From Nemertoderma westbladi (Eukaryota; Animalia; Xenacoelomorpha), in assembly GCA_032718475.1 (NCBI GenBank), contig JAUCBJ010002303.1, positions 20,694-84,693 on the forward strand: a stretch of DNA of 64,000 bases. The letters run 5' to 3'. This document shows positions 1-53,850 of the stretch, piece after piece. The notes below the pieces were generated by a model. The model saw nothing but the letters and a program-made list of their open reading frames with translations. It made no database searches and was not told the DNA's origin. The position numbers were made by a program, and so were the translations under genes. Every line of letters begins with the position of its first letter. The first letter of the stretch is position 1.

Positions 1-4
1 CGAG

Positions 5-1261
5 TTGATTACGCTGTCGCCACAACTCAACGAGGATGGGATTCTAGTAATGAATTCTAGGGTGGGATATAACAACAGTATAGTCGTGCCACCGAAACCC
101 ATCATCATTCCCACAGGATCGCCTATAGTCCACCAGATCATATGGGACTCCCACAAATCGATATTGCATGGGGGCACCAACCGAACCCTCACAGAGATAA
201 GGAGGACCTATTGGGTCAAACAATTAAGAAAGAAGGTTAAAGCGGTAGTGGGGCAGTGCCAGACCTGCCGACGAGCGAAGAAGGAACGAGCCGTACAGGA
301 GATGGCGCCACTACCGGCGAGTAGGGTAAGACAGCACGACCCGCCATTTACGCATTGCGGTGTGGACATGTTCGGGCCGATAAAGATCAAGGTGATGCGA
401 CACACGGAGAAACGCTACGGTATTATCTTCGTATGCAACAATACGCGGGCGGTAGGGATAGAACTCGCCCAAGATGCAACCGCATCAGCATTCATTAACG
501 CCTTAGAAAGGTTTAGGGACCGCAAAGGTGGGACGATCGCAGTGATATACAGCGACAACGGCACCAACTTTGTGGGCGCAGAGAGTGAGATGGCAGAGGC
601 CTTGGAAATCTTAGAAGGAGAAGAAGTCAGGGCAGCCATGAGAAGACGACAAGTAAGGTGGGAGAGAAGGACGCCGTATGCACCACATACACTAGGATAC
701 GTCGAGAGACTGGTGGGCAGTTCAAAGCGTCTAATGACGAAGTTAATGAACACCCACATGGTCACTGAGGACGTCTTACGGACAGTACTTGCGAAGTGCG
801 AGGGGATCATTAATAGCAGACCGCTATACCCGGAGAATGATGACCCTGAGTCATTAGACGTGCTGACGCCTAGCCATTTTCTGATGGAAAGGCCAGCGAC
901 CATCGATATGCGGGGTGTAGACCCAGATGATATACATTCCCGCCAGAGTTGGAAAGTCGCTAAAGCAATAAGCGCAGAGTATTGGAGGAGGTGGGTAGAA
1001 GAATACCTACCCACGCTCCATAAGCGAAGCAAGTGGAGGAAGCCGAACAGGGAGTTAAGAGAGGGAGATCTCGTAATCGTCACGGATGATACTATCATCA
1101 ACAACCAGTGGCGGTTGGCGAGAGTCGTAGGCACCTACTCCGACGAGGACGGAAGAGTCCGATCGGTAGAAGTGCGGATAGGTGGAAAGATAGGTGCGAA
1201 AGACAGAAAAACCTACAGGAGAGCAGTAGGTAAATGCTGTCTTCTAGAAGGGGCACCTTAA
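5..1261 (+). CDS. BEL/Pao Pol C-terminus (integrase), open in the visible part; begins before the window
   Basis: H..H..CxxC Zn motif (HKSILH...CQTC), GVDMFGP, YSDNGTNFVGA, ERLV catalytic motifs, BEL-typical WRRWVEEYLPTL / GDLVIV / DGRVRSVEV tail. Confidence 0.93.
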   Translation: MITLSPQLNEDGILVMNSRVGYNNSIVVPPKPIIIPTGSPIVHQIIWDSHKSILHGGTNRTLTEIRRTYWVKQLRKKVKAVVGQCQTCRRAKKERAVQEMAPLPASRVRQHDPPFTHCGVDMFGPIKIKVMRHTEKRYGIIFVCNNTRAVGIELAQDATASAFINALERFRDRKGGTIAVIYSDNGTNFVGAESEMAEALEILEGEEVRAAMRRRQVRWERRTPYAPHTLGYVERLVGSSKRLMTKLMNTHMVTEDVLRTVLAKCEGIINSRPLYPENDDPESLDVLTPSHFLMERPATIDMRGVDPDDIHSRQSWKVAKAISAEYWRRWVEEYLPTLHKRSKWRKPNRELREGDLVIVTDDTIINNQWRLARVVGTYSDEDGRVRSVEVRIGGKIGAKDRKTYRRAVGKCCLLEGAP

Positions 1262-2242
1262 TATAGAGTTAGAGTGGAGTTTAGTCGTCCAAGTTTTGGA
1301 CTGAGGGGGGTGGGATTGAGGGCGAGACGCCCTTCCCACACAAATAAAAATAAAAATAAAATAAAAATAATAGTTAGTTAGTTAGTAGGTACGTAGTACC
1401 TAGAGTTAGTTAGTTAGTTAGTAGGTTAGTAGTTAGAAGGAAGTGGCGGCAAAGGTCTGGAAGCAGAAAGCGGATGATGCCAGAGGAGCGGTGATAACCA
1501 AGAAACGGGCCAGGGAAGAGGACGTGAGGAGGAACAGATAAGTTCCCAGAGACGAGGGAACGAGGGAGTGGGACTGAGACTGGAAAGTGGTGCGCCTGGA
1601 AGGCGCCGCATGGAACGTACGAACTATTAAAATACAAACTTAATTAATGCAAATAACATATAAGTGCAATTTGTATGTACGTACATAGTGATTAGTAATC
1701 TAAAATACATACGTTTGGAGTAAGTACTATAGTCATACAACCTTTCTCAATTAGCTACTGGGACTGGGGGATAAATGACTATGGCACTATGGACGAGACA
1801 ACTGACAATTTCACGCTTCTTGAGTGCGACGGCACGAGAGGGGGGGGAGGTTCGTCAGGAGAGATAAAATAGTCAAAGTGGAGTTGAGGATCGGAGTAAG
1901 AGTGCAAAGTGCGGAGAGAGTGCGAATGCAATTCTAGTGTGGGGGGGGAGAATAAGAGGCTGAGTGAGGGACGAGGAGGTCCGGGGGTATGAGAGAGTTA
2001 GGGTGAGAGTAGAGGGGAGATAGGGCGAAAGTGTTGGGGAAACAAAAGTCGCGATCGGCCCGACATGAGACGCCAGGCACACAGGGTAGCATTATCATAC
2101 CCATAGGGGGCGGCCTGGAAAGCCGACCCCGAGAGAAAAGAATTCCACCCCACACCCGATACTAGATCGGGATCCAGCGGGATTGTAACGCACTTTTTTG
2201 GTTGATGCTATCTTCTTACCGGGAAGATAGCATGGGGGGGAG

Positions 2243-2783
2243 TGTTAGCTTATTCAATCCCGCCAACACCCCATAAAGTTATAAGCCGATAAGCAATATT
2301 GGGAGCCACGAGATTGGGCAATTAACCAACTCGTGCCATCCCAATAAGAGTGGGAAGGAAGCACACAATAGAGGGTCAGGGGCCAAACCCCTAACCCAGA
2401 GAGAACAGGTGGAGTGAACGGGAATACTCCACGGGGCGCCAACAAGGGTATTAACCAATCAGAGGGGGGAATGGCATCGATTGAGTAGCAGTAAGGCCAC
2501 CGTGCAATATAACCAATAACCTATTAATCAGGGATTCAGTTATCTCAGTGCAGCAGTGCTAGCGTAGGGTACAGTCAATTAGTTTAGTTAGGGGATCACG
2601 GGACTTTAGGTACCGTATCCCGCCTTGTACACATTATACCTATATCTATATCCTATGCCCTGTTATTATTATACACCGAACTTCAGAACTCAGTTACCTT
2701 TATTTCACCCTTATACACGGCGGGGACGCGTGGACTAAATTACCACATCGGATAAATCGGGATCCCTCCTGGATCCCGTCACA
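2243..2783 (+). repeat. 3' LTR of BEL element 1 (541 bp)
   Basis: TG...CA termini, preceded by PPT; alignable but clearly diverged from 13467-14033. Confidence 0.85.
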
Positions 2784-5700
2784 GAGAGGGCAGACGAAGC
2801 GTCGAGCCCGATCAGAAGAGGGAAGAAGAACAGTGGAGTTTAACCGGGAGGTCGAAGAGAGATCTCACGAGCGGGAACACTGCACTGAAAAGAGAAGAAG
2901 AGAAGATAGTAGGAGAAGTATCGCTGCGAACGATAGGAGAGCGAGGACGGATAGCGAGCCGTCGATAGTCGAGATGGGAACGGAGAGTCAGTGGGGTCGA
3001 ACTTCGGGAGATTGCCGTCGTCCCAGAGAGGCGCGACCTGACGAGGCGCACTGCGCGCCGATAGAGGGGTACGCGATGTACCGGCACAAGGACGAGAGCA
3101 GTGGAGGGGGTCGAAGAGAAACTTCCCGGCGGGATACAGCTACCGATCGAGAATACGGTAGCCGCGGGGAGGATTACTCGAGAAGATTAAACTTCGATCC
3201 CGAGCGACACATACAGACTGTGGAACATACTGTAGGCCTTACTGCACATACCATAGGCCATGCTGGCAGGAATAATTTAGGCGATAGGATAGCGCGGACA
3301 AAGGGATTAAACCCGGAAGTCGCGGAGTACATACCGGCAGGTAGGCCAGAAGCTGACAGGCCTATTCCGGTACCAGTACAACAGTATGACTACAGCATGC
3401 AAGGACATAACATATACCCAGGGGAGGGGGGAATTATTGCGGATAGGTGCATGGGCCCCAATATATTAACATCAACCCCAGTATCAAACATACCGGTGGG
3501 GGGGGGGGGGGGGGGGACAGGGTGACATTCCCCCATCACAATATCAACAATATACCCCGATAGGAGCAAGAACAACGAGACCCTTGGATGAAAATAGATC
3601 ATGCGACACAGAAATATGGAGGGGGCCGCTACCCCCAATGATATACCCAAGCCAGAGGAAGGTAGAAAATAGGACGGACGGACCACACCCAACAGGAGAA
3701 ACTATACAACATCCATCGAACCCATTGGAAGCGCAGGCGATGGGGATGGCCACGTTGATCGATGCGTTAAAAACTAGGATCGAGTTACCAGCCGTGGAAC
3801 CGTTTAAATTCGATGGGAGTAGGCCAGAAGAATATCTGCAGTTTCGGCGCATGTATAGTAACGAAATACTAACAAAGAACTTGACGCAGGCGGAGTGCCT
3901 AAAATATCTGCAAGTATATACAGGAGGCCCAGCATACGACATCGTGAGGCAATACCAGGGCATAGAGGGCGGCTTCACGACGGCATGGCGGGCACTGGAC
4001 AGGGAATATGGGCACCCGGCCAAGATCATCTGGCAAACCCTGAGGGGCATAACATCGGGTGGCCTACAGGATAATCCCGTTAGCATTAAGACGTTCGCGA
4101 ACAAAGTCGAGAAGGCGCTAATCGTGTTAAAGACGCTAGACGCGCCATACGAACTCAACGCGTCCAACAACATCACCACGATAGCGCAGGCACTACCGAT
4201 GTGGCTGCGCAACAAGTGGAGGAAAATCGCTTTCTCCACTCGAGATAGGAAGGGTGCGGAACCGGGTTTAGAAGAAATGTCGAGCTTCTTAAACTACGAA
4301 GCCGAATTAATAACCGACCCAGTCTATAGTGAGGACAGCCTGGGAAAGGGACCAAGAACCGATTACCATAGACTGAAACCAGAACACAACACGTCAAACG
4401 CATTGCCAAAGCTCAGGCAATCATTGCCATAAGCAACGACGCAGGGGACTGCAAGTCCACAGGTAGCCGAGGGTAAGACCACATCATGGAGCGGACAGGG
4501 GAAAAATAACAACACAAATAAATATAACCCCAGTACGCCCAGTAGGCCGAACCCAAACAATAAGAATAGTAGGGACTTTGGTACAAATGCAACTGCGATA
4601 CGCAATGCACTGTATAAGGACGGCTATAACCCAAAGAGCAAATGCCAGCTACATACAAATGCGCTTCATCAAACCATGAACTGCAGGTACTGGCAAGCCC
4701 TACCCAGGGAAGATCAGGTAGAATACACGGCGAGAAATGAGATCTGCTCGCGATGTGTGATGAGTGGACATAGAGCTAGGCAATGCAAGGAGACGCCGAT
4801 CAAGTTCGGTCAAAGCAAAGGCCAAACGATGGCAACGAGCACAGTAGGGGTGAAGAAGAGAGGAACGGTGCTACTTGGGGTAGTACCAGTGCGAGTGATT
4901 GGAGAAGGCAATCGATCAGTGACCACACTGATGCTGGTAGATAGTGGAGCTGCCTTCACATTAATCGAAAATTGGGTGGCCGAAGAGATAGGATTGAGAA
5001 CGAGGCCAAGTAGAATGGAGGTAACAACAATTTCTAGCAAAGATGAGGTCCTGGAGATGAGGACCGGACGGTGCGCGATTGCAGCGGTGGCACCGGGATG
5101 CGACTATGGGGCGACCATCGACCCTATCCAAGTGATAGAGTCAATAAATATCAATGCCAGGCGGCCAACCAACATCGAGGTCGAACAATATAAATTCCTG
5201 GACGATATCGACTTCTCAATCCCAGAGGTGGACGTTAGGAAGGTATCCATCATAGTAGGAATGGACTGCCCGACGGCCCACGAAAGAATGCAAACGGTCT
5301 TCGGCGAAGACAGGCAGTGTGACCTGATGGCGATATTGACACCATTCGGGTGGACGCTGAGTGGCCCAATTAAGAGTAAGATACCATTTAGGATGTCGGA
5401 GACATCAGGATGCATGTTCGCAGGAACTATGTAAGAAATGGGGGATGAGAGAGCGGAGGAACAGCTCAAGAGACTGCTCAGGCAAGATTTTGAGGGACTA
5501 AAGGAAACCGGGGTCGGGACCTCGGTGGAAGACAAGCAGGCTCAGCAGAGCGTAAAGGAGTCTATGAGATGCGACGAGGGGCGGTATACCATAGGAATGG
5601 TATGGAAGCTACCAAAGCTACCACTGCCCGATAACAAGGGAATGGTACTCACGAGGCTTCATAAGTTGAAACAGACATTAAAACGGAGCCCCGAAAAGAA

Positions 5701-8700
5701 TGAGTACATTCACAAAACAATCAGAAAGTACGTCGAGAAGGGATGGGCCGTGGAGTTACCGGTCGACGAACCGAACACGGACAGGACATATTACCTGCCA
5801 CTCCACGTGGCTTTAGATCCGAAGAAAGGTAAACTGCGGATGGTAGTGGACGCATCGGCAAAGACCGACGGGAAATGCCTAAACGACTATCTGCTAGAAG
5901 GTCCCAACATATACAACTCAGGGATAGAGGTCCTACTCAGATTCAGGAATGGGAAACACGCCTTCACCTGTGACATAGAAGGCATGTTCAACCAAGTCCG
6001 TGTGACGGAAGAGGATAGCGACAGTCAACACTTCCTATGGTACAACGGCGACGTGGAACCGTCGACAATACTGATGTACAAGATGATAGTACAGAATATG
6101 GGAGCCAAGTCGTCTTCATTCACGACGACTATGGCCGTAAGAGACACAGTAAAGGGAAAGGAAGATAAATACAGTACTAGAGCCGTCGATATGATTCGAC
6201 GCGGCTTCTACGTAGATGACGGGATGGAGTCTGGAAATACGGTTAAGGAGCTACTGGACACAGGGCGCGAGGTTCGTGACATCCTTAAAGGATCCGGCTT
6301 CAACCTAACCAAATTCCAATCCAGTTCGAAGGAATTTATCGAGGCGATAAAAGATGAGAGACCAGGATCGACCATGGATAATCCCACAACAGCCAAGGGG
6401 CAGGACATGGCGAACAAGAGGATAGAATCTCAACAGAAGGCACTGGGAATCGTGTGGAACAGAGAGACGGATGAACTGAAGTACCAGTTGAGTCAGGAGG
6501 GCGCAGATATCCACACAAAGAGGGGCTATGTGTCGTACATAGCAAGGATATACAATCCCCTAGGCCTAGCATCCCCACTATTAGTCACGGGGAAACAGAT
6601 ACTCAAGAGAGTATACAAACTAAAGGACGAGTGGGACGCAGAGATACCGGAAGAGATCAGAAAGCAGTGGTATAACTGGACAGAGAGCCTGGAGCAGATG
6701 GGAACATACAGCATGCCAAGAGTGTATTTCCCGGATGGGGACATGACAAATCTGGACCTACACATGTTCTCTGATGCATCGTTAGAGGCATACGGAGCGG
6801 CACTCTATTTAGTACAACGAGAGGGGGCTCACAAGCCCTGACTGGCCTTCAGCAAAGCGAAGTCAACGCCACCAGATTCAGCATCAGTTCCCAAACTAGA
6901 ATTGACAGCTGCGAGACTAGGAGTTAGGGCTACAGCCTACCTAATGGATGCTATTCCCAACATAGTGGAGACACACTACTGGACGGATTCCATGGTAGTG
7001 CTTGGTTGGCTACATAACAAAATGACGAGATACCCTATATTCGTCGCGAATAGAGTGGACGAAATAAGGGCGACCACAGAACTGGAAAGGTGGCACTACT
7101 GCCCAACGGACGAGAACCCAGCGGACTTGTTATCGAGGGGCGTGGTATGCCACACTTTCTTGAAGAAGGAAGTATTGTGGCAACACGGGCCACAGTTTCT
7201 GAGCGATAAGGAGGCCTGGCCGCCGATGAGAAAGGTGGACCCGGGCTCAGGAGAAGTAGTGTCAGAAGGAGAAGAGGGAGATTCAGAGGGAGAAGAGATA
7301 TACTCCCAGATAGTGAGGGAGATTAGGGGCGTGCAACCAAAATCAGAAGAACCGTGCGATAACCTGGCGGATAAACTCCTTAGCTACAGTTCTAGCTGGT
7401 ACAAGACCAAGAAATTAGTGGCGTACTGGAGAGCCTTCGGGAATTTCCTCAGGGGAGTTGGCAAAGACGTGAAGATTAGAATGACAATAGATCTGGAAGG
7501 AGCGGCCAAAGCAGTCATCCGCTACGAGCAGAGGAAGAACTACGGCGACGAGGTGGAACGCGTCAGTAAACAACAGCATCTACGGTGGGACAACGAGCTC
7601 ATCACGCTGTCACCACAACTTAATGACGACGGGATCCTAGTAATGAACTCTAGGGTGGGATACAACAACAGTATCGTCGTACCACCGAAGCCCATCATCA
7701 TCCCCACAGGATCGCCGATAGTCCACAAGATTATTTGGGACTCCCACAAGTCGATATTGCACGGGGGCACCAAACAGTTGAGGAAGAAAGTAAAGGCGGT
7801 AGTGGGGCAGTGCCAGAGCTGCCGACGAGCGAAGAAGGAGCGAGCCATACAGGAGATGGCACCACTATCGGCGAGTAGGGTAAGACAGCACGACCCGCCA
7901 TTTACGCATTGCGGTGTGGACATGTTCGGGCCGATAAAGATCAAGGTGATGCGGCACACGGAGAAACGCTATGGTATTATCATTCGTATGTAATAACACG
8001 CGGGCGGTAGGGATAGAACTCGCCCAAGATGCAACCGCATCGGCATTCATTAATGCCTTAGAGAGGTTTAGAGACCGCAAAGGTGGGACAATCGCAGTAA
8101 TATACTCAGACAATGGGACCAACTTTGTGGGGGCGGAGAACGAGATGGCAGAGGCCTTGGATATCCTGGAAGGAGAGGAAGTCAGGGCAGCCATGAGGCG
8201 ACGACAAGTAAAGTGGGAGAGGAGGACGCCGTATGCACCGCATACCCTAGGATGCGTCGAGAGACTAGTGGGTAGTTCGAAGCGTCTGATGACGAAGTTG
8301 ATGAACACCCATATGGTTACGGAGGACGTGCTAAGGACAGTACTTGCGAAGTGTGAGGGTATCATTAATAGCAGACCGCTATATCCAGAGAATGATGACC
8401 CTGAGTCACTAGACGTGTTGATGCCCAGCCATTTCCTAACTGAAAGGCCAGCGACCATCAATATGCGGGGTGTAGACCCAGATGACATACACTCCCGCCA
8501 GAGTTGGAAAGTCACTAAGGCGATAAGCGCAGAGTATTGGAGGAGATGGGTTGAGGAATACCTACCCACGCTTCACAGAAGAAGTAAGTGGAGGAAGACG
8601 AACAGAGAGCTGAAAGAGGGTGATCTCGTGATCGTCACGGATGATACCATCATCAACAACCAGTGGCGGTTGGCGAGAGTTGTAGGCACTTACTCCGATG

Positions 8701-8816
8701 AGGACGGAAGAGTCCGATCGGTAGAAGTGCGGATAGGTGGCAAGATAGGTGCGAAAGACAGGAAAACCTACAGAAGGGCTGTAGGGAAGTGCTGTCTTCT
8801 AGAGGGAGCACCTTAG
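2784..8816 (+). pseudogene. Disrupted gag-pol of BEL element 2
   Basis: Gag FDGSRPEEY and Cys/His knuckles (CSRCVMSGHRARQC), protease LVDSGA, RT DIEGMFNQV and FYVDD, RNase H FSDAS / WTDSM / NPADLLSRG, integrase. Broken by a G-run frameshift near 3500, stops at 4430, 5432 and 6839, a 39-bp in-frame deletion near 7772 and a frameshift near 7980. Confidence 0.92.
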
Positions 8817-8980
8817 TGTAGAGTAAGAGAGGAGTTTAGTCGTCCAAATTTTGGACTGAGGGGGGTGGGATTGAGGGCGAGACGCCCTTCCCACACATAA
8901 AAATAAAATAAAAAATAAATATAAATAATAATAACTAGGTACGCAGTAAGTAGGCAGATAGAAGTTAGATAGTAAGAGTA

Positions 8981-9740
8981 GTAAGAGGGTACGTAGTACC
9001 GTTAGTTAGGAGTGTTAGAGGAGTAGTAAGAGGGTACGTCGTACCGTTAGTTAGGAGTGTTAGAGGAGTAGTAAGAGGGTACGTAGTACCGTTAGTTAGG
9101 AATGTTAGAGGAGTTAGTAAGAGGGTACGTAGTACCGTTAGTTAGGAGTGTTAGAGGAGTAGTAAGAGGGTACGTAGTACCGTTAGTTAGGAGTGTTAGA
9201 GGAGTAGTAAGAGGGTACGTAGTACCGTTAGTTAGGAATGTTAGAGGAGTTAGTAAGAGGGTACGTAGTACCGTTAGTTAGGAGTGTTAGAGGAGTAGTA
9301 AGAGGGTACATAGTACCATTAGTTAGGAGTGTTAGAGGAGTTAGTAAGAGGGTACGTAGTACCGTTAGTTAGGAGTGTTAGAGGAGTTAGTAAGAGGGTA
9401 CGTAGTACCATTAGTTAGTTAGTTGAGTTAGAGGTTAGTAAGAGGGTACGTAGTACCGTTAGTTAGTTAGTGGAGTTAGAGGTTAGTAAGAGGGTATGTA
9501 GTACCGTTAGTTAGTTAGTTGAGTTAGAGGTTAGTAAGAGGGTACGTAGTACTGTTAGTTAGTTAGTGGAGTTAGAGGTTAGTAAGAGGGTACATAGTAC
9601 CATTAGTCAGTGGAGTTAGAGTAGTAAGAGGGTACGTAGTACCTTTAGTTAGAGAGAGTAAGAGTTAGAGGGTACGTAGTACCGTTAGTTAGTTAGAGAG
9701 AGTTAGAAGTTAGTAAGAAAGTACGTAGTACTAGTTAGTA
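8981..9740 (+). repeat. Internal tandem array of BEL element 2, 45-48 bp unit, about 17 copies
   Basis: Unit gtaagagggtacgtagtaccgttagttaggagtgttagaggagta; core GGTACgtaGTACC is an inverted repeat. Confidence 0.95.
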
Positions 9741-10202
9741 AGAGATAGAGGTAGAAGGGTATATATAGTATAGATATTAGTCAGTAGTGAGTAGCGAGAG
9801 GGGGGCATATGAGTACAGCTGGATAAATCGTGTGGCCATGCGACGCATACTGTTGTACTGCACAGGTCCCACAGAATAGGCCAGAATGTGGATTATAAAA
9901 TAGAATAATCCATAGATGATAGTAAGTAGTAGGACAGTAGAATTAAAATTAAATTAAAAATAAAATAAGAATAGGGCTGAAAATTAGCAAATTATGGTAA
10001 CAGTGGAAAAGGAAATTCTGGAATATAATTAAAGTAATGGACAAAATTGCGATTTAGGGTACATTTAGTAGCTTCATAATTAAGTAGTGTAAAGAATAGG
10101 CGATAACTCAGAAATTCAGAGAGAGATAGGCCATCGAACTGAAATAAACCATCTAAACCTATCACTCATCCTATAGCGCCTTGGTAAGGCACCACCCAAA
10201 GG

Positions 10203-10563
10203 GTGAGCGATCGGGCAGAGTTCGAGATGGCAAGCAAACTTGTGCGAAAGAGAAAGGCGGAGCTAGGAGGAAAGGAGATACTGGTGGATTTCACCAAGAG
10301 GCATCCGGAAGAGAGGACAAGGGGATACTACGAGCGGTTAGAAAAGGGTCACGCAGTGCGAGCGCTACAGGACCACTTCAGGGAGGTGCACGAATAGCGG
10401 CTGGTCGGGACCTACGGGACGCCGTCGCTGGACAACGCGATCTTCGAGCATTTCCACTACGTGGTGAAAGGAGACGAGGCGAAGTTCGGGATTCCGAAGT
10501 ACGCAAGAGAGTCAGAGGAAAGATTGGAAGAGGTTCATAGAGTCCGTCAACAGGGGAGGATAC
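10203..10563 (+). pseudogene. Probable disrupted N-terminal extension of the extra ORF
   Basis: Same purine-rich coding-like composition. Frame 10203 reads on past a TAG at 10395 (RLVGTYGTPSLDNAIFEHFHYVVKG). The frame of the 10564 ORF is open back to 10468 (QRKDWKRFIESVNRGGY-MILDDEG), implying one stop and one frameshift. Confidence 0.55.
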
Positions 10564-12774
10564 ATGATCCTAGATGACGAAGGGACTGTGGAAGACAAGG
10601 AGGGTTCAAGGAGAGGATCGGCGGGATTGGCCAGAACCATACTCCTACATTTGGCCGCGCCAAATGGGGATATTTTCCTATTTGACCTGGGAACGTATGG
10701 GAAGAAGGACGGGCCGAAGTTAAACTTGCTGCCGAGGGCGGTGCAAGTCCTAGTGAGAGAGAAGTCGACAACAAAAGTGGGATTGGCGATTCGCGATGAC
10801 ACGGAGAGAATCATCGGTCCGGACACCCCCAACCTCCTGGATATGCAGACGGTCTTCATGGCTATGACAGCACCAGACGGGTTGGGACTAGTCGAGAACA
10901 CAGGCCATTGCGGAGCGGTGGCGATGGGCCAGCTATTGGGGCTCGTATGTCACAAACCAATGGACTGGGGGAAGTTCAGAGAAGAGTACGGAGCAGAATT
11001 AGCAAACTCGCTGAAGTGGGGAGCGAGGCCGGAAAAACAAGAGGTGTATCAATTCCGAAGAGGAGCGATAAAGGTATATCAGAAGCGATATATCCTGCAG
11101 GAGGACTGGATAATGATAGGTTTGCTTAACCTATTCATGACCGTGGTTATCGAGAGGGAACCAGCGGCATTCCTATTATCGGGATCACCCCTAAACTACA
11201 GAAGAGCCTTTAAGACGGCTTTCGTGGGTCTGGTAGACCACCCGGGGCTGAAGGGCGAGTCGGTGTACTACAACAGCCGACATCTGGTAGACGGGGAGAT
11301 AGATACTCCGTATCAGAGATGGGAGCAGCTAGAGACGGATAGACGAGAGGCGAAGCGACTGGAAGAAGTTGCTAGACGGGAGAGGAGAGAAGCAGAGGAA
11401 AGGGAGGAGGAAGCCAGGGCGCAGAGCTACGGCTTCGAGGAACAGACGGGCTTAGACGAACTTCGTTGGACTTCATCAGGGAGTTCGGGGGAGTCTCTAG
11501 GGCGAGAACTGGGATGGACGGTGGGATCACCGAAACAGTCAACGTCGGGATTGCAAGCGACGCCCATACCAGCGGGCACTGAGGGCGACCAGCCGCTAAG
11601 GAAGCTAGGGGAGCTAGAGGGATGGAGAGCTACGGGCGAGAGCCAAGGCGGGAAGGGACATAGTGGGTCCACCGGGATACCGGGGTTGGAGTCACTGCCA
11701 GAGGAGGACGAAGACGACGACGAGTTCGGGAGGATCGGCCACTCGGACACGCACTGGGTTGGCGGGAGGGTGGTGACGGCCAGTGGGGCGAGGGCCTTCT
11801 GGGATAGACCCGGCAAACGGGCCTGGGTGCACGAGGAGCCGGCGATGGATTTCGCGGGGAGCACTATCAGGTTGGGCGAGCAACCGGGGACGGCACCACG
11901 GGTAGTATTCGGGGAGACGATGCACGAGAGGGGCGAGGAGATCGACGTAGATAGGGACACTAACGCCCGGAAGTTCGCTTACCAGCGACTCCACAGACCG
12001 CGGAGATCGCTTGGGACGAAAGACGACGTGGGGCGGGAGACATTGGTACTCGGCTGCGACTACTGTGGGAGACAGACCCACCAGGAAAGGAGCTGTTTGT
12101 ACCGGTTCCAGAAAGGAACTAGTTGTCTCTATTGCCGCGAGTCGAGCCACAGGATGGGGGCGTGTCCACGGTTGCATAACCGATGTTCGAAATGTAACTT
12201 CCGGGGACATTACGGATGCCAGTGCGACTGGATGGACGACAAAGAAAAGTTTAGGATCTTCGAGGAGGTGGCCGACGTCGGAGCGATGACTCGGCAACGC
12301 ATGAAGGCCCAGGAGTTCCGGTGGGGCTTCTTTAACATCAATCAGGAGGCTCACATGGAGATTATCAAACGGAGGCTTCCGTTTACCTATCAGGAAGTGG
12401 CGACGGCGGTATCATATGCCGGAGTGATAAATACGCAGAGGTATTTGTATAGGTGGACGCCACAGAGTAGAGGAGAGTTTAGGGATTTCTTGGCGGAGCA
12501 TGTGCCGCAGGCAATGAAGATGATCTTATGGGACGCCACCAGGGGGAGACAACAGGGCCACTCGGAGGGGCCACCCGCTAAGCGATACCGGGAGCTAATA
12601 ACACCGGCACCCAAGGAGTCAACGACCGGGATCAGTAAGGAGGTGGTGGCGAGAGTCCGAAGCCAGAAAGCAGACAAGACCAGAGGAGCGGCAGTGACCA
12701 GGAAACGACCCAGGGAGGAGGACGACAAAGGGAAAGACTTGAGGTGGTTCCCAAAGGCTGGTGGAACGAACTAA
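10564..12774 (+). CDS. Retrotransposon extra 3' ORF: DEDDy-type 3'-5' exonuclease domain + coiled coil + three CCHC zinc knuckles
   Basis: ILDDEG (ExoI DxE), LLHLA..IFLFDL, LPRAVQVLV..KVGLAIRDD (ExoII), LLDMQ, QKRYILQED (ExoIII-like); E/R-rich helix; CDYCGRQTHQERSC, CLYCRESSHRMGAC and CSKCNFRGHYGCQC at 12055-12225. Confidence 0.78.
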   Translation: MILDDEGTVEDKEGSRRGSAGLARTILLHLAAPNGDIFLFDLGTYGKKDGPKLNLLPRAVQVLVREKSTTKVGLAIRDDTERIIGPDTPNLLDMQTVFMAMTAPDGLGLVENTGHCGAVAMGQLLGLVCHKPMDWGKFREEYGAELANSLKWGARPEKQEVYQFRRGAIKVYQKRYILQEDWIMIGLLNLFMTVVIEREPAAFLLSGSPLNYRRAFKTAFVGLVDHPGLKGESVYYNSRHLVDGEIDTPYQRWEQLETDRREAKRLEEVARRERREAEEREEEARAQSYGFEEQTGLDELRWTSSGSSGESLGRELGWTVGSPKQSTSGLQATPIPAGTEGDQPLRKLGELEGWRATGESQGGKGHSGSTGIPGLESLPEEDEDDDEFGRIGHSDTHWVGGRVVTASGARAFWDRPGKRAWVHEEPAMDFAGSTIRLGEQPGTAPRVVFGETMHERGEEIDVDRDTNARKFAYQRLHRPRRSLGTKDDVGRETLVLGCDYCGRQTHQERSCLYRFQKGTSCLYCRESSHRMGACPRLHNRCSKCNFRGHYGCQCDWMDDKEKFRIFEEVADVGAMTRQRMKAQEFRWGFFNINQEAHMEIIKRRLPFTYQEVATAVSYAGVINTQRYLYRWTPQSRGEFRDFLAEHVPQAMKMILWDATRGRQQGHSEGPPAKRYRELITPAPKESTTGISKEVVARVRSQKADKTRGAAVTRKRPREEDDKGKDLRWFPKAGGTN

Positions 12775-13466
12775 GACTTCGGTGTAACATGCCTGGAAGG
12801 CACCACGCGAGACGTGCGAACTCTTAAATACAAATTCAAATAATGTAAATAATCGAATAAGTACAATTTGTATGTACGTACGTAGCAATCAGTAATCTAG
12901 TAATGAAATATATATATTCGAAGTAAGTACTATAGTCATATAACCTTTCTCAATTAGCTACTGGGACTGGGGACCAATGGACTATAATACTACTACGGAC
13001 GAGACATTGGACGACATCACGCTTCTTGAGTGCGATGGCACAAAAGGGAGGGGTGAAACTCGTCGGGAGTGAGTGGTCAGGATAGAGGTTGAGTTGTAGT
13101 GCGGAGAGAGTGCGGAGTATAGAGAGAGTGTGAGCGCAATTCAAGTGTGGGGGGGAGAAGTAAGAGGCAGATTGAGGGACGAGGAGGTTCGAGAGTGTGT
13201 AAGAGTTGGGGTGAGAGTAGAGTAGAGTTGGAGTGGCGAAAATGTTGGGGAAACAAAAGTCGTGTGGGAGGAGCGCACGATCGGCCCGACACGGGATGCC
13301 AGACAAATGGGGTAGCATTATCATACCCATAGGGAGCGGTCTGGAAAGCCGGCTCTGAGAGAAAATAGTTCCACCCCACACCCGATACTAGATCGGGATC
13401 CAGCGGAATTGTAGCGCACTAGAGGTGGATGCTATCTTCTCACCAGGAAGATAGCATGGGGGGGAG

Positions 13467-14033
13467 TGTTAGCTTATCCAATTCCGCTAACCACCCCATA
13501 AAGTGAGCCATTAAGCAATATTGGGGAACACGAGGGTGAGCAGTCAACCTCGTGTCACCCCAACAAAGTGGGAAGGAGAAAGCACACACACACACACACA
13601 CAATAAGGGTCAGGGGTTACACCCCTGAGAGAGAGAGAGAGAGAGTAACAGGGGCGAAGGGAAACCCTCCAGGGGAGGAAAAGGGCGACAACAGGGTTAT
13701 TAGACAATGGGGGGAAGGCATCGGTTGAGTAATGTAACACAGCCAACCGTGCAATATATATTATCAGTACAGTAATCATTTCATTCACTTATAGTAAGTC
13801 AGTTTAGCTAGGGTAGTACCGGAACTTCAATTACCGTCTTCGTATACCATCCGTGTATCCAATATTGTATCTTATACTTTGTGTTATCATCTGTATACCT
13901 TATATCATATCTTATACTATTATACCCGGAGAACTATATACAGCGATCAATAACTCTCTTTACCTTTCACACACGGCGGGGACGCGTAGATTGAAAACCG
14001 GATAAACCGGGATCCTCCGTAGATCCCGTCACA
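13467..14033 (+). repeat. 3' LTR of BEL element 2 (567 bp)
   Basis: GGGGGGGAG|TGTTAGC start, CCCGTCACA end; contains (CA)n and (GA)n microsatellites. Confidence 0.87.
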
Positions 14034-14270
14034 CTTGTAGATATTCCCATTGAATTCACTGGGAAGAGCTATCACCTGGGCTGGGGTGGGGTGATACAAT
14101 ACAAACTCACAGGTGATTTTTGCTTAATGTCTGGGATAGAGTGACTGGGTAAACACAACCTTACTAAACTTGGCAACATGGCATGTAATATACTTGTCTG
14201 CAGTTTGGGCCTGTAATAATAGCATTCACAAGGCCCTCACTATCATTTTTCATGAGCTCACCAGCTGGTG
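14034..14270 (-). repeat. Unclassified dispersed repeat; related copies at about 14685-14860 (+), 21375-21490 (+) and 36385-36705 (+)
   Basis: Shared blocks caccagctg..ctcatga, gcccaaactgca, tcactcta(t/c)cccagaca and gaatatcta(c/t)aag; the 21375 copy shares only the upstream ggctttaaacgaacctg..gaaaattgc block. Confidence 0.65.
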
Positions 14271-16842
14271 ATTATACATTACTATTGGGTCTATGGCAAT
14301 TTTCGTGTTTTGGGGCTATTTTTCGAAATAAAACAAGTTGAGATGTTTCAATTTAAACCGCGATTTCACAAGTACCCATAGAAATCTATTTTCATGGTTC
14401 ATGCAAAATTTAATCAAAATCGTTAGAGCCGTTTTTGCACAAGTTAAGTAGGTACTGTAGTTGTCTAGTCAGTAGCTTTTTTGCTTATTAGAAGACCGAT
14501 AGGACTTCATACTGTAAAAGTATTCACTATGTATGTATATCGGGTTAACTCCTCCGAAACTATAGTTCGCCTGTCAATGAATGAAAGTTATATGAATCGA
14601 CGCAACTCAACCCCAGGGTGTGGAAAAAAAAAGTTTCTAAAAAAATTATTAAAGTGTATTTTTTTGTTTCAAAAAATAGCCTCAAAACACGAAAATTGCT
14701 ATAGACTCAATGATAGAAACACAAGCTGCTGGTGCTCATGAGGGCCTAGTAAGCTACTAACTATTGATTGAATGGATAGGCCCAAACTGCAACGAATTAC
14801 ATTACTTGTCAAATTTATTACTATCTCACTCTATCCCAGACAGAAAGCAAACATTGTAATATATTAGCCCGCCAGCCTATGATGTCCTTCAGTCCCGGGA
14901 TGCACCACAGCGCTTGTTTTATTGTACTAACTGACACCTGGCCGCCCGGTTGAACTTAGATTAATTACTGGCACCCGGTTGCACTCGCCGACACGTGGTT
15001 TGACTAACTATGGCCTAAGGTTGGTCTTGTTAGTGTGATCGTAGTCCCGGTTTACTACTGTTCGAGCAATTTTCATAGCAGGCTGCATAGAGCCTGCTAT
15101 GGTTAACTAAATACTGGCCCCGAAACGGCGAAAGTAAAGGTATTATATGTTAACTAGAACGCCATCAAGATGGCTTTAAACGAACCTGTCTTACACAGAC
15201 TCCAAGAAACAGATGGGATTGGAAGATGCAAACCAAGAATGACTTGCATCAACCAAAAAACTGCCTCCCATCTAATGTAATACACATTCGCCTAGGCAAA
15301 CAAATCATAATCACAATTACTACGATGATCTGTGAAATGGTATCCATATCCGCAACCTGAGAAACGGCCCAAAAGAGCAGTTTATTCTGCGGAGGGGTCT
15401 TTTCTGTATTAGATAAATAAAATAAAGAACACTATAATTACAGTATTTATACCTGATACATTCTCAGTTAGCCTAATAAAAACATCGGAGCAACCAATAT
15501 AATGTACATGTACAAGCATCCTATGAAAGTTTGTGAAATGTTCCCTTAAGTCTACCCAACAGCCGTTGGTACCCGGCTGGCAGCCACCCTGGTTCAGTTT
15601 TATGGTTTTGTTAGTTTAATCGACAGCTGTTGTAAACGTCCCAGATATACAAAACCTACTAAGCCTTTGCATTACAATTGAGCTTAGCCTAAGTTGATGA
15701 CAGTATTATAACGATGACAATTAGGCCCTATAGATACATACGATATATAAATGATGTACTGCTTGACATTACACTAACTGGCTGAATAGAGATAGAACTA
15801 TAATAATACGTTTGGCATTCTGTCAGATTTGAGTAGTAAGTAACCTCATAATAATTGCTAAATATCAATCACCTGAAAAACATTTCAAGCAAGGGAGTTG
15901 TGGGTATTTAATTTCGCGTTCAATAATGTTGAATATATGCAAATATTTCGAATATCGCACTTCGAATCGTTCCCAACTTTTTTATTCAACAACTAGACAA
16001 CAATTGATAAATACTTGCGTTTACAATTTTACAATGCATGCAAGTGGTTTCAAGCCATTTGGTGAACATACATAGTGACATATGTAGTGATATAGGTAAA
16101 TATATAAATATATATATCCATCGTGTTTTTGCCGGCCTCAGCTTTAGACAAAAACTACCCAGTCTAAAGACAGGTTCGTTATAAATTCACAAAGAAGGAC
16201 AAACTGATACGACGGTTGTCAATATCTGTGCGAATGTTTTTTCCCTTAGCATTCTCATTGGTGCTTCTATCAGTCTACAGTATACTATGTTAGTGCCATA
16301 TACTGTAGCAACCAACAACATTCTATAGCCAGGTTGGTGGAAAAAGCAGTTCAAAAATAACTCACGGTTGGTTAGATTTCCAAGCGGCGTCAAGAAGAGT
16401 TAACTGGTTAATAGGTACAGCACTGCTGGCGCATCCCGGGGCTGGCGGACACTGGCTGTCACTCATCCTGGACCTGTCCTGCATTGTTTATTTGACATAA
16501 GGTAGCGGCAGCAACACTCTTTAAATCACTTAGCTTTAAGTAGGCCTACCTGTCTCCAGTCTGCATGTGTGTTGTGCACTTCTTACTGGTCCGCAATGCT
16601 GCAATGCCTAATCTCTAAAATCACATACGGATTATTCTCCATAGGAATCCATTACGGCACACAAGCGAATGTACATAGGGATACGGCAAATGCATACGGA
16701 TACGGCGAAAAGTTACAGTATTTAAACCCGCCATTTCGACCGTTTCCTTGTGTTTTAAAACACGAGACAGTGGCACGTTATTTTAACCAAAACAATTTAC
16801 TAAACACAATTGAACAGGTTTCAGTTTTATTTTTGAGATTAA

Positions 16843-19790: not shown

Positions 19791-20822
19791 ATGGCTCTTC
19801 TTAGATGGGGTATTTGCGGGAGTGGCAAGATTAGTCACGATTTCAGCCTAGCGCTAGCCCTGAAAGCTGGAAAAGACAGACACTTGCTGCAAGCTGTTGC
19901 TGCGAGAAACAGCGAACGAGCTCAAAAATTCGCAAAAATTCACAACATCGGCACAGCGTACGGGGATTACAAGCAGCTAGCTGAGGACAGCGCTGTAGAC
20001 ATCGTCTACATCGGAGTCATACATCCGCACCATTTCGAAACCACTAAACTCTTCCTAAACGCAGGTAAACACGTATTGTGCGAGAAACCCTTAACCTTGT
20101 CATCCAAAGAAACAACCACTCTATGCGAGTTGGCAAAGAAGAACAACGTATTCCTTGCGGAGGGATTGTGGTCCCGATATTTTCCCATCTATAAACGGAT
20201 ACGCCAGATTATTGATGATAATGAAATAGGCGATGTTCGAACCGTGGCTGCCAATTTTGGTTTCAATTTATCTGCAGTCGATAGGCTGACAGATCCAGCA
20301 CTTGGTGGTGGTGCTTTGTATGATTTGGGTTTGTACACGATTCAGTTTGCCTTGTGGATATACCACAACTTTGGCTACAAACTTAATGATATATCTTCAG
20401 TAGGAGCTTTAAACCCGAGTACCAAAGTAGATGAAACCACTGTCGTTACGATGAAGTTTGCCGATTCCAAATTAGCGGTTCTCACCTCTTCCACCTCTTC
20501 TATACTGTCGAACACTGCAGTTGTGTCCGGCACATTGGGGTGTTTAACGGTTGAGAAGTTGTGGTGTCCCACCAAATTGGTCGTCAATGGGAAAGAAGAA
20601 ATTTACGACCTACCGGATATTAAGGAGATTAATTTAAAGGACAAAGGAGGATTTAATTTTATAAATTCAGCGGGTTTGATTTACGAGGCAGATGCAGTTC
20701 GCACCGCCATTAACGCCGGTCTCAAAGAAACTGCCGAAGCTCCTTGGTCTCAGACAATAGCGATAAGTGAGATAGTAGATACTGTACTTAAACAGGTTGG
20801 GTATAGAAGTGGAACTTTGTAA
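19791..20822 (+). CDS. DHDH: Dimeric dihydrodiol dehydrogenase / D-xylose 1-dehydrogenase (NADP)-like, Gfo/Idh/MocA family, copy 1; intronless
   Basis: LRWGICGSGKISHDF, DIVYIG..HPHH, GKHVLCEKP, EGLWSRYFP, GGGALYDLGLY, GLIYEA. Confidence 0.92.
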   Translation: MALLRWGICGSGKISHDFSLALALKAGKDRHLLQAVAARNSERAQKFAKIHNIGTAYGDYKQLAEDSAVDIVYIGVIHPHHFETTKLFLNAGKHVLCEKPLTLSSKETTTLCELAKKNNVFLAEGLWSRYFPIYKRIRQIIDDNEIGDVRTVAANFGFNLSAVDRLTDPALGGGALYDLGLYTIQFALWIYHNFGYKLNDISSVGALNPSTKVDETTVVTMKFADSKLAVLTSSTSSILSNTAVVSGTLGCLTVEKLWCPTKLVVNGKEEIYDLPDIKEINLKDKGGFNFINSAGLIYEADAVRTAINAGLKETAEAPWSQTIAISEIVDTVLKQVGYRSGTL

Positions 20823-34802: not shown

Positions 34803-35825
34803 ATGGCTCTTCTCAGATGGGGTATTTGTGGGAGTGGCAGGATTTGTCATGATTTCAGCCTAGCCCTGCAAGCCGGAAAAGACAGACACTGCCTGCAAGC
34901 TGTCGCTGCGAGAAACCTTGAACGCGCTCGAGAATTCGCAAAAATGCACAACATCAGCACGGCGTACGGGGATTACAAGCAGCTAGCTGAGGATATCGCT
35001 GTAGACATCGTCTACATCGGAGTCATACATCCGCACCATTTCGAAACCACTAAACTCTTCCTAAACGCAGGTAAACACGTATTGTGCGAGAAACCCTTAA
35101 CCTTGTCATCCAAAGAAACAACCACTCTATGCGAGTTGGCAAAGAAGAACAACGTATTCCTTGCGGAGGGATTGTGGTCCCGATATTTTCCCATCTATAA
35201 ACGGATACGCCAGATAATTGATGATAACCAAATAGGTGATGTTCAAACCGTTGCTGCCAATTTTTGTTCCAATGTAACTGAGGTCGAATGGATCCGTGAT
35301 CCATCTCTTGGGGGTGGCGCTTTATATGCTTTGGGTGTATACACGATTCAGTTTGCCTTGTGGATATACCACAACTTTGGCTACAAACTTGATGATATAT
35401 CTTCTGTAGCAGCTTTAAACTCGGGTGAAGTAGATGAAACCACTATCATTACAATGAAGTTTGCCAATTCCAAATTAGCGGTTCTTACCTCTTCCGCCTC
35501 TTCTATACAGCCGAACACTGCAGTTGTGTCCGGCACATTGGGGTGTTTAACGGTTGAGAAGTTTTGGTGTCCCACCAAATTGGTCGTCAATGGGAAAGAA
35601 GAAATTTACAACCTACCGGATATTAAGGATATTAACTTGACAGGCAAAGGAGGATTTAATTGCACCAATTCAGCGGGTTTCATTTACGAGGCGGATGCAG
35701 TTCGCACCGCCATTAACGCCGGTCTCAAAGAAACTGCTGAAGTTCCTTGGTCTCAGACAATAGCGATAAGTGAGATAGTAGATACTGTACTAAAACAGGT
35801 TGGTTATAGAGGTGGAACTTTGTAA
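34803..35825 (+). CDS. DHDH: DHDH-like oxidoreductase, copy 2; intronless; conserved Asp replaced by Ala
   Basis: Paralogue of 19791-20822; GGGALYALGVY in place of GGGALYDLGLY. Confidence 0.9.
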   Translation: MALLRWGICGSGRICHDFSLALQAGKDRHCLQAVAARNLERAREFAKMHNISTAYGDYKQLAEDIAVDIVYIGVIHPHHFETTKLFLNAGKHVLCEKPLTLSSKETTTLCELAKKNNVFLAEGLWSRYFPIYKRIRQIIDDNQIGDVQTVAANFCSNVTEVEWIRDPSLGGGALYALGVYTIQFALWIYHNFGYKLDDISSVAALNSGEVDETTIITMKFANSKLAVLTSSASSIQPNTAVVSGTLGCLTVEKFWCPTKLVVNGKEEIYNLPDIKDINLTGKGGFNCTNSAGFIYEADAVRTAINAGLKETAEVPWSQTIAISEIVDTVLKQVGYRGGTL

Positions 35826-44110: not shown

Positions 44111-45136
<1,026 letters not shown>

Positions 45137-50724: not shown

Positions 50725-51407
50725 CTGAGGAAATAAAGAAAGTAATAAAATAATACTGAATAAAATAAATGAAATTCCCCTGGATAAACTGTAGTTCTAA
50801 CAGTAACACACCAGTTCTTCTAACAGGGGGAGGGGTGGCAGTCATCATGTTTTTATTGGATGGTACCCACTTCCCCCCCCCCCCCCCCCTTCCCCTTGTA
50901 TAGAACGAAATTAAGAAGTATTTAACCCCCTTTCTGTTCAGAAATTATTTTATAATATTTTCCAAATTGTTATCGCCCCCCGCCCCCACCCCCACCTGGA
51001 TGATTCTAAATTAGGAAAACACTAGTAAAACAGTAAAACACTAGGAAAACATAGGAAAAGTACTGTAAAACACACGGAAAACAGTGAAAATATTGATCAG
51101 CAGGGAATTTAACACATGTACTTCTCTGAATTGACAATCCTAAATGTACTCCTCGCATAGCACCCCTTAAGTCATCACCGTAAAACATTCGGAAAACACT
51201 ATAAAAATAATATAAACCTTCCGGAAAACAGTGAAAAAATTGATCAGCATTAAATTTTACCTATATGCAGCAAAAAAATAAATTGAAAGAGTCTAATACT
51301 GCCCAGAAAGCTTGTTGCCAGGCAACCAAAGAACATAGTACATAGTCAGCATACGGTGCAGTATCAGTACAGCAGTACTATCCGGGCGTAGACGCTGTGC
51401 AGACATA

Positions 51408-51724
51408 GGTGCCGACAGAGGTGCCGACACAGGTGCCGACACAGGTGCCGACACAGGTGCCGACACAGGTGCCGACACAGGTGCCGACACAGGTGCCGAC
51501 ACAGGTGCCGACACAGGTGCCGACATAGGTGCCGACACAGGTGCAGACACAGGTGCCGACATAGGTGCCGACACAGGTGCCGACACAGGTGCCGACACAG
51601 GTGCCGACGCAGGTGCCGACACAGGTGCCGACACAGGTGCCGACACAGGTGCCGACACAGGTGCCGACACAGGTGCCGACACAGGTGTCGACATAGGTGC
51701 CGACATAGTGACCGACTTAGGCAC
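51408..51724. repeat. 12-bp minisatellite in the left TIR
   Basis: (aggtgccgacac)n. Confidence 0.95.
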
Positions 51725-52578
51725 TCAGGTTTCTCTCAATATGTTTATCTCACTAAATGGCTTACTTGTTGTGACGTTATATACTGTCTATTTGTAACTT
51801 TCAGAAAAATCAAATTCCAAAAGCTTTATATGGCAGATTATCCCCGTCGGCAGTATGCAGAGGTTTAACACGTCAAAAAATATTTTATACCATACCTGAA
51901 GACCCCCTGCGATAGGAACACATGTTGTATAATAACATCCTGCTGTCAATAATTAACGTAAATCATATGTTTCATTCACTATTAATTATTAATTAATTAA
52001 TTATTAATTATTCACTATTAACTCCAATAAGTATGTTTAAGAATATATATATAAAGATAAAGAACATGCTAAATGATTGCGATAAGCGATAAACAGACAA
52101 AATACGATGCGACCACCTCGATTATAGATTATATTAATAAGTAGAGCACTACTGATATTCTTTATATACAACTGATATTGATATTCCTTATATACTACTA
52201 ATACTTTAGACCGCAGGATGTACCGCAGGATGGCGCTAAACCATCTGGAATTCTCAAGAATACTGACTATGGACTCTGTGAAAAGTTTAATTTTTTAAAT
52301 AGAATTTGGGTGGGGCCATTGAGTATCACAAGTATGACTGTCTGTCTTTTTTCCAAATATTTTCGAACACTAATAATTCGGTCAATCCTCGATAAAATTA
52401 ATCCAAACGTGAAACACAGTCTGTCAAAAATGTAGAAATTTTACAAAAGAATATCAGGATTCTCTCTATGGATTATAATCTAAAATTCATACGATAATAA
52501 TTTTTATTAATATTATAAGTAAATTGGGTGTCTCGTGGCCCCACATTTATCTAGTTTAAGATTACTCGGAATTTTTAT

Positions 52579-53082
52579 TCAAACTAATCCAAAAGATCTG
52601 AGTTTATCTATTTGTTTACTATCGAGATTGCGATACACAATATTTTCAATGAAGACATCGCTGAGGGAGAACTTGGTAAATTTCAACTGTACACAATTCA
52701 TTTGAAGGTGAAAAGCAACTTTATCTTTAGTGATTTTAAGTTGCAATTGGTTGGAGTTAGGTGTTCTATATGCTCGTTGACACCATGTGAATATGACAAT
52801 ATCTTCAGGAGATTGAACTACCTGACTGCCTGATCTGCGAAGAAATCCATCACATCCATAGCATTTAAACCAATCTCCCTCATTTATTGAACCGATAATA
52901 AATTTACAAGATTCTTTGGCTATATCTAATTGATTGATTAATTGCTGTGTTAATTTCTTATTAACAATTTTTCTCTTCCCAGGCCCACACTTTCTACCTG
53001 CAACACTGGCGGCAGATAAAGCTGCCAGTTGTTCGAGCGTCCATGTTGAGTTCCACCAACTTATGTACTTATTATACACCAA
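52579..53082 (-). pseudogene. Probable C-terminal fragment of a MULE-type transposase (Cys/His zinc-binding module)
   Basis: Only long ORF between the TIRs; KCYGC...PEDIVI...FHLQMNCV pattern after a basic AGRK..KRK segment; no DDE core visible. Confidence 0.5.
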
Positions 53083-53836: not shown

Positions 53837-53850
53837 AGCGTCTACGCCCG

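Follow-up and report, generated by a model that had tools for sequence, protein, structure and literature searches.

The window analysed here is a 64,000-nucleotide stretch of the genome of Nemertoderma westbladi (Xenacoelomorpha; contig JAUCBJ010002303.1, positions 20,694 to 84,693 of the forward strand). Toward its left end lie two head-to-tail copies of a BEL/Pao long terminal repeat (LTR) retrotransposon: E1, which is entered by the window edge, and then E2. Downstream of pol, E2 carries a third open reading frame (ORF), ORF3, whose protein joins a DEDDy exonuclease-like domain to a C-terminal zinc module. The evidence supports the view that BEL/Pao elements of this family share a third ORF, namely ORF3, with this pair of domains. 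Its open frame runs from 10468 to 12774 (768 codons; 736 residues counted from the ATG at 10564). An original prediction, made from the letters of the window, had placed a 736-residue ORF between pol and the polypurine tract (PPT) and 3' LTR, and this position holds: the integrase ends at 8816 and the LTR starts at 13467. The parts of ORF3 are as follows.

10227..10511, + strand: probable first part of ORF3, from ATG 10227; in the window copy it is interrupted by a stop codon (10395-10397) and shifts frame near 10512
10510..11274, + strand: DEDDy domain, RNase D/EXD2-like (profile, AlphaFold model and fold searches)
10573 (D) and 10579 (E), 10798 (D), 11089 (Y) and 11101 (E), + strand: catalytic codons of Exo I, Exo II and Exo III, respectively
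11275..12054, + strand: charged helix (about 11308-11427) and low-complexity linker, the linker non-conserved and unalignable across the family
12055..12330, + strand: conserved zinc module, holding 12 of the 14 invariant columns of the family alignment (A2); predicted local distance difference test score (pLDDT) 75-91
12331..12774, + strand: variable basic C-terminal tail and the ORF3 stop (frame, alignment A2 and model)

The assignment of the DEDDy domain rests on profiles and structure. A Pfam search, suggested as a check of the original prediction, found no match in ORF3. Thirty nuclease domains of the family searched one by one gave only one weak unrelated match, and DNA_pol_A_exo1 appeared in one of 37 members scanned, at 6e-5 and just under the cut-off. 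The best phmmer match of the single ORF3 to the PDB had E=0.18, a single-sequence fold (pLDDT 32) was discarded, and word-based homologue searches with ORF3 and with alignment A2 scored none. A HMMER scan of 1.84 billion representatives returned 76 matches, all through the C-terminal zinc region; the profile of the N-terminal domain also matched 28 of the 76, 13 of these being its seeds by construction. When the window protein was left out of the profile, its N-terminus was still recovered at E=1.4e-25. The family profile matches EXD2 (9e-12), Trypanosoma brucei RNase D (TbRND; 3.4e-10, over both domains), WRN (4e-5) and Egalitarian (0.02), and a profile of the 30 nuclease domains reaches EXD2 at E=3.3e-13.

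An alignment-based AlphaFold model contains two confident domains, with residues 311-511 mostly below pLDDT 50. Its best Foldseek match is T. brucei RNase D (E=2.3e-5). A wide structural search returned diDNase (Z 13.4, root-mean-square deviation (rmsd) 3.3, 167 residues aligned), Nibbler (Z 13.1, 3.7, 187), WRN (Z 12.5, 3.1, 163) and RNase D (Z 12.1, 3.8, 175), four top rows that are to be read as ties; Exd1 has Z 11.1. Identity to the structural neighbours in these alignments is only 14-17%. The RNase H-like DnaQ fold expected of the N-terminus was recovered by structure prediction (Z 12-13.4, rmsd 3.1-3.8, 163-187 residues), and the model confirms the N-terminal part of ORF3 as a DEDDy-fold domain.

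The company of Nibbler and Exd1, and of TbRND, which trims guide RNAs, brings in one explanation of what ORF3 does. It may be a trans-acting suppressor of small-RNA silencing that would bind the 3' ends of piRNAs or siRNAs, degrading them where its site is intact and sequestering them where it is dead; a dead enzyme could still sequester. Of the alternatives to the reading that we favour below this is the most credible, though it is still improbable.

The zinc module spans about 90 residues and has 13 Cys/His positions, with an invariant His ahead of the third Cys pair. It contains the C/H ligands with a core of L-H-x2-C-x2-C-x2-R-G-H, then F-E-x2-A-x2-G-x2-T-x2-R and W-G-F; the core columns were imposed by the search pattern in the case of the loci described below, but not for the 29 rows of A2. 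The three CX2CX4HX4C knuckles first noticed at residues 498-554 are indeed present in the window copy, but they do not extend to the family: among 155 distinct modules the strict pattern occurs three times in one, that of the window copy, twice in 24, once in 34 and not at all in 96, and the fixed spacing of gag-type knuckles does not hold across the family. An Atlas neighbour named 'CCHC-type domain-containing protein' (score 0.86) is a lead only. All homologues were recovered through the zinc module, and elements that have lost it are invisible to the searches.

The active site is found in several states. D4, E6, D79 and Y176, which the original prediction had matched by eye to DEDDy nucleases, occupy family-conserved columns, the window copy thus having both the Exo I D-x-E and the Exo II D, and E180 fits the register of Exo III. 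D181 was rejected as a catalytic acid, since its column is non-conserved and A is the commonest residue there (33 of 91 rows). Over the same 91 aligned rows, gaps included, the Exo I D, Exo I E and Exo II D are present in 47, 53 and 48. Exo III of the window copy reads Y-x3-E in place of the canonical Y-x3-D. The same Y-x3-E occurs in the three nearest relatives (P0007, P0008 and P0022; FastTree support 0.86), so that Glu at the fourth catalytic position is a lineage trait. With 16 incomplete rows set aside, 75 complete domains remain. All four acids are kept in 43 of them, with the exact D-E-D-Y-D in 30, and at least one is lost in the other 32. The Exo I D-x-E is missing altogether from one clade of 20 rows (support 0.996), and 12 loci of this dead-site clade also form a clade in the reverse transcriptase (RT) tree (support 1.0; 100/99 for four representatives). 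Five members have a zinc module and no detectable nuclease domain (L047:3341-6529, L059:6880-9648, P0043, P0071 and P0077); the frames of L047 and L059 follow a BEL integrase. Catalysis looks dispensable. An earlier emphasis on nuclease activity is accordingly modified: the identity of the domain stands, while the focus on activity is only partly supported, given the Glu variant, the loss of acids under selection in 32 of 75 domains, and the nuclease-less L047 and L059. For the core role, binding of RNA is the stronger candidate.

The true start of ORF3 is very likely ATG 10227, about 112 codons farther upstream. The upstream piece it adds (10227-10511) is basic and polar and matches the family profile weakly (E=0.018). 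Public contigs from N. westbladi placed on 9750-14150 number 9717, 5685, 6401 and 121 in four runs, which represent at most three samples, one of them possibly the window's own source, and contig depth is not copy number. At both the stop and the frameshift most contig depth differs from the window copy, and for this reason we regard the two breaks as private decay of that copy. Sixty variable sites are listed across the nuclease motifs. Of the 40 that are shown, 24 concern the third base of a codon (p=0.0005), and no motif codon is affected. A pyrimidine-rich stretch at 10150-10190, ending in AG about 50 nt before ATG 10227, has by eye the look of a splice acceptor.

The elements that house ORF3 have the following parts.

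2..1261, + strand: end of E1 pol, RNase H-integrase (Pfam Integrase_H2C2, rve, DUF5641), cut by the window edge
1437..1590, + strand: remnant of the E1 ORF3 C-terminus (tblastn 65.5% identity, E=3.8e-5 over 1437-1523, against the last codons of ORF3)
2243..2783, + strand: LTR, TGT...ACA, the 3' LTR of E1; it lies 3' of the E1 polypurine tract and occupies the place of an E2 5' LTR
2784..8816, + strand: E2 gag-pol, broken, BEL/Pao (Pfam DUF1759, Asp_protease_2, RVT_1 (weak), Peptidase_A17, rve, DUF5641)
8976..9692, + strand: purine-rich 45-bp tandem array, 15.8 copies, within the 1.4-kb spacer between pol and ORF3
13451..13466, + strand: polypurine-rich tract preceding the E2 3' LTR; a 3' untranslated region of about 700 bp separates ORF3 from the tract and LTR
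13467..14033, + strand: E2 3' LTR, TGT...ACA, following the purine tract

The Pfam domains of E2 stand in the Pao-type order of protease, RT, RNase H, then integrase (PR-RT-RH-IN), and the LTRs, with TG...CA ends, a length within 0.2-1.2 kb and a PPT before the 3' copy, are those of Belpaoviridae. The pol genes of E1 and E2 are 86.6% identical. E2 is a dead copy; its gag-pol has frameshifts near 3500 and 7984 and in-frame stops at 4430, 5432 and 6839. In E1 the bulk of ORF3 is deleted, and a remnant of the tandem array (1376-1440) abuts what is left. The earlier argument that the E1 remnant marks ORF3 as a property of the family is upheld by its similarity to ORF3 and by many homologous loci elsewhere.

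The LTR at 2243-2783 is assigned to E1 because the E1 purine tract precedes it and because it is only 66% identical, over 594 columns, to the LTR at 13467-14033. It therefore cannot date E2, and dating by LTR divergence was rejected. A canonical primer binding site (PBS) was not found 3' of 2783 in the damaged window copy; in all five loci displayed (L033, L060, L062, L069 and L023) a TGG-starting site follows the LTR. The tandem arrangement with one LTR between the copies (pol 87%, LTRs 66%) and no PBS after it makes recombination or deletion likely. The LTR end at 14033 is supported by eight contigs of run X5, which pass beyond it into unlike flanks (agreement 0.47). Directly 3' of the E2 LTR is another dispersed repeat with inverted arms (14034-14854, and again at 36450-36701), and E2 thus ends inside or beside an element resembling a miniature inverted-repeat transposable element (MITE). 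Rfam gave no result on 1200-14100.

The position of ORF3, where env would lie, together with the broken window copy and the deleted E1 copy, is what a passenger of captured host DNA, or an env substitute aiding cell-to-cell passage, might leave. We consider this very unlikely, the least credible of the explanations. An env function was rejected: in line with the original prediction, which saw no obvious one, there is no signal peptide or membrane anchor, the highest 19-residue hydropathy across the open frame being 1.46. Across the family, hydropathy exceeds 1.9 in only three of 68 frames, with peaks at residues 68 and 81, near the start, and 999. The passenger version is already largely refuted by selection, since purifying selection (given below) and long open frames are seen across very divergent elements.

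The family was followed in other genomes with a degenerate zinc-module motif, which found at least 120 stretches in metagenome contigs. Flanks were taken for 80; the other 40 stretches, too short to show their surroundings, do not enter the counts. Among the matches listed, 39 of the 80 loci have an upstream BEL integrase in the same orientation, and none of the 80 matches the gypsy RT or RNase H pieces of the window. Where more upstream sequence is available the fraction rises, to 30 of 34 loci with at least 4.5 kb and 27 of 30 with at least 5.5 kb. Three of these 30 depart from the pattern: L071 is a chance match, its contig being gene-dense, and L012 and L022 are broken copies, the latter with a short pol remnant. 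All of the 39 integrase-linked loci are less than 90% identical over the motif, and 37 have the nuclease domain. By Pfam, Peptidase_A17 and DUF5641 occur in the polyproteins of five of five relatives, which places them in BEL/Pao, and relatives carry an ordinary tRNA-type PBS and PPT.

A chance origin of the motif matches was rejected. In 596 billion prokaryotic bases the motif matched only 12 times, six by chance and six in true ORF3 copies. The latter (L123, L124, L127, L128, L130 and L132) lie on small contigs within two bacterial bins of metagenome-assembled genomes (MAGs), one of the copies with a BEL integrase, and are probably eukaryotic contamination of the bins. Viral contigs scanned with the motif and with RT gave no result. 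Four contigs of about 10.2 kb (L033, L060, L062 and L065) have terminal overlaps of 111 bases and contain one LTR, gag-pol and ORF3 each; we read them as collapsed repeats or one-LTR circles.

Selection was measured as the ratio of nonsynonymous to synonymous substitution rates (dN/dS) in 15 close pairs, picked from trees and sharing members between them, of which 13 were measurable per region. The check called for by the original prediction shows purifying selection, with dN/dS of 0.06-0.52 in the nuclease region and 0.02-0.38 in the zinc module. Five pairs with dead sites are no exception (0.06-0.36 in the nuclease region). The nuclease region of close pairs is less alike than their RT, for example 51-53% against 67-70% protein identity. 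Such faster divergence would suit a protein engaged with small-RNA silencing, as would the abundance of the family in N. westbladi (thousands of contigs). On the other side, no measurable pair has dN/dS above 1, and in rotifer elements Rodriguez et al. (2017; PMC5408684) saw copy number in no clear relation to the presence of a DEDDy ORF3.

ORF3 has been co-inherited with RT: distances in the nuclease tree correlate with those in the RT tree (rho 0.91, n=23, p=0.0005), with the caveat that kin do not count as independent. The RT of the window forms a long branch off the main carrier group, nearer to fish, echinoderm, mollusc and other proteins, and in the best RT tree it is split from the remaining ORF3 carriers, a separation that recurs in 200 out of 200 bootstrap replicates. 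A single carrier clade is nevertheless not rejected by the approximately unbiased test (p-AU 0.096 on 29 rows), which left out L010, L023 and unnamed proteins that group with carriers, and in which comparison proteins were entered irrespective of their ORF3 status. Two histories would fit these trees: ancient presence of the gene followed by many losses, or its passage from one BEL lineage to another.

In one clade pol and ORF3 are predicted to be joined by readthrough. With the degraded L023 and L039 set aside, the stop of pol could be located in 37 loci, and in 14 of them pol ends in TGA-C. At least 200 open in-frame codons follow the stop in 11 of these 14 and in one of the 23 others (Fisher p=5e-6; kin are not independent). 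The loci with TGA as the pol stop and ORF3 in frame are L002, L007, L021, L031, L033, L034, L037, L062, L065, L066, L068, L069, L080, L029 and L076, with C after the TGA in 14 of the 15. About ten of the TGA loci have a stem 9 nt past the stop with a conserved 7-nt bulge. In six junctions of equal length 97% of the cells pair, and two-sided changes occur at nine of 13 pairs, above all 500 shuffles. From these features UGA-C and the stem-loop are predicted to yield a Pol-ORF3 readthrough fusion. The dead-site clade supplies most of the cases, but L029 and L076, in which the active site is intact, also have the TGA-C junction in frame. For the window's element readthrough was rejected, as pol there stops at TAG or TAA without the signal. 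The env gene of SIRE1 is reportedly expressed by readthrough and offers a comparison. Known UGA-C signals with a 3' stem-loop, as described by Firth et al. (2011; PMC3159437), are alike in the UGA, the C and the nearby conserved stem, and differ in that the signal is absent from the window element and the junction here is a prediction.

Alternatively, ORF3 may serve replication as an active 3'-5' exonuclease inside the particle, trimming primers or the ends of cDNA, or clearing mismatches for RT. The four acids kept in 43 of 75 domains, the intact sites joined to TGA-C junctions in L029 and L076, the correlation of ORF3 and RT distances, and a fold common to the proofreading domains of polymerases and to WRN all speak for such a role. 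We judge it unlikely, since the elements with readthrough junctions mostly have a dead site, the ordinary PBS and PPT of relatives leave no unusual priming step that needs it, and most of the BEL/Pao elements described so far replicate without such a gene. Readthrough also sits poorly with suppression of silencing in trans, as a Pol fusion gives few copies that are tied to the particle.

The reading that we favour, with a probability of about one half, is that ORF3 is an RNA-binding accessory on the element's own ribonucleoprotein (RNP), with 3' trimming as an extra in some lineages. The zinc module would grip single-stranded RNA, and the DEDDy pocket would hold an RNA 3' end, as in trypanosome RNase D; where catalysis is lost the domain would still bind RNA, as in Egalitarian and Exd1. 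The target would be the element's own transcript, for 3'-end protection, packaging or transport. UGA readthrough in the one clade would make the Pol-ORF3 fusion and so place the protein in the particle. In the window lineage, where ORF3 begins at its own start codon 1.4 kb after pol, a separate message would be required. We prefer this reading because ORF3 is kept despite lost catalysis or, in L047 and L059, an undetectable nuclease domain, and because the fingers of TbRND bind RNA and Egalitarian works without catalytic residues.

Several points weigh against this reading. The four acids are kept in 43 of 75 domains (30 as D-E-D-Y-D), which suggests that catalysis is important in many lineages. 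The apparent indispensability of the zinc module is biased because all homologues were found via that module. The relatives EXD2 and WRN act on DNA too, so that RNA as the substrate is an extrapolation. The pairs used for dN/dS share members, and the stem was counted on folds of the same six related sequences; RNAalifold, run on 11 junctions of unequal length, came out without the lower stem. In the window lineage particle delivery is not indicated, because there is no readthrough signal.

The Juno and Vesta LTR elements of bdelloid rotifers are gypsy-like. A DEDDy ORF3 with a DEED motif has been reported in Juno, Vesta and Athena/Terminon, no function being shown for it (Rodriguez et al., 2017; PMC5408684), and two reviews repeat this account. 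It resembles ORF3 of the window in that both are separate 3'-5' exonuclease ORFs in the env position after pol, with no transmembrane or signal features. The rotifer elements belong, however, to a separate group with a dUTPase domain, and the text covered has no mention of knuckles in ORF3, of readthrough or of BEL/Pao (PMC5408684). ORF3 differs in its BEL/Pao host, in its fused conserved zinc module and in the coexistence of intact, DEDE and dead versions; all 39 integrase-positive loci are BEL-type, rather than Juno/Vesta LTR or Penelope-like elements.

Among cellular proteins TbRND is similar in its order of a DEDD exonuclease and then CCHC fingers (PDB 7C42-7C4C; PMC7797062). Its zinc fingers are stated to supply RNA binding and boost cleavage, and the combination of exonuclease and CCHC to be very unusual among solved structures (PMC7797062). 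TbRND is an enzyme of the cell, its linker is 28 residues long and its canonical fingers number four, whereas ORF3 has about 250 disordered linker residues, varying finger spacing, an extra invariant His and a downstream conserved segment. The shared architecture is probably convergent. EXD2 (PDB 6K17), the best sequence match of the nuclease profile, mainly over the Exo I-II half, is a host gene, and WRN-exo, Nibbler/Mut-7, Exd1 and Egalitarian likewise have the same fold but are host genes. Egalitarian binds signals in RNA, the I factor's among them, and does not need its catalytic residues to function; together with Exd1 it shows a route from enzyme to RNA binder.

The ICTV profile of Belpaoviridae, whose LTR, PPT, PR-RT-RH-IN order and Pao-specific Pfam domains the window elements share, lists gag, pol and an optional env-like gene, and no nuclease ORF (PMC8742986). 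In the passages covered, de la Chaux and Wagner give only env as an extra BEL/Pao gene and use the word 'nuclease' 0 times; the sequence files of that study may hold unannotated members. A word search of a review of extra plant ORFs turned up no passage on an exonuclease or on readthrough. The original prediction knew of no DEDDy ORF in BEL/Pao or fused to knuckles, and the literature searched gave no account of such a gene in BEL/Pao, with subscription journals, supplements, Repbase, Dfam and GyDB outside its coverage. This type of cargo is known from rotifers; within that coverage no printed account turned up of a BEL/Pao host for it, of a zinc module fused to it, of such a spread of active-site states or of the readthrough predicted here.

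Beyond the two elements the window contains features seen in passing. Two intronless Gfo/Idh/MocA oxidoreductase paralogues lie at 19791-20822 (supported by Pfam) and 34803-35825, and an actin coding frame was recognized by eye at 44111-45136. The inverted arms of 12-bp tandem repeats at 51383-53850, which enclose a minus-strand frame of 175 codons (52579-53106), may belong to a foldback element or DNA transposon. A 33-bp satellite of about 100 copies occupies 55405-58900. At 60307-62154 (minus strand) a 615-codon intronless frame looks by eye like a CUB-domain membrane protein and has no Pfam match at E 0.001.

A wider proposal is that in a widespread group of BEL/Pao elements a captured EXD2-like exonuclease with a zinc module replaced env and works in the particle beside RT and integrase, brought there in some lineages by the Pol readthrough fusion, editing 3' ends (of primer or cDNA, or at a mismatch) or shielding the genome from small-RNA attack. 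This is doubtful. If true, it would make ORF3 a retroelement counterpart of the ExoN of nidoviruses and arenaviruses, whose active, altered, dead and deleted forms would make up a natural series in these elements.

Whichever role applies, ORF3 bears on why retroelements carry 3'-5' exonucleases, a question that has stood since the rotifer report, which gave no functional data (Rodriguez et al., 2017). For Belpaoviridae it adds a class of accessory gene missed by Pfam, a zinc module that bears no family name, and a signal predicted to express a third ORF by readthrough. Four natural states of the nuclease domain (canonical, Glu variant, dead and absent) are laid out on a congruent RT tree, in many divergent open versions, and the roles of catalysis and of RNA binding are therefore directly separable in this family.

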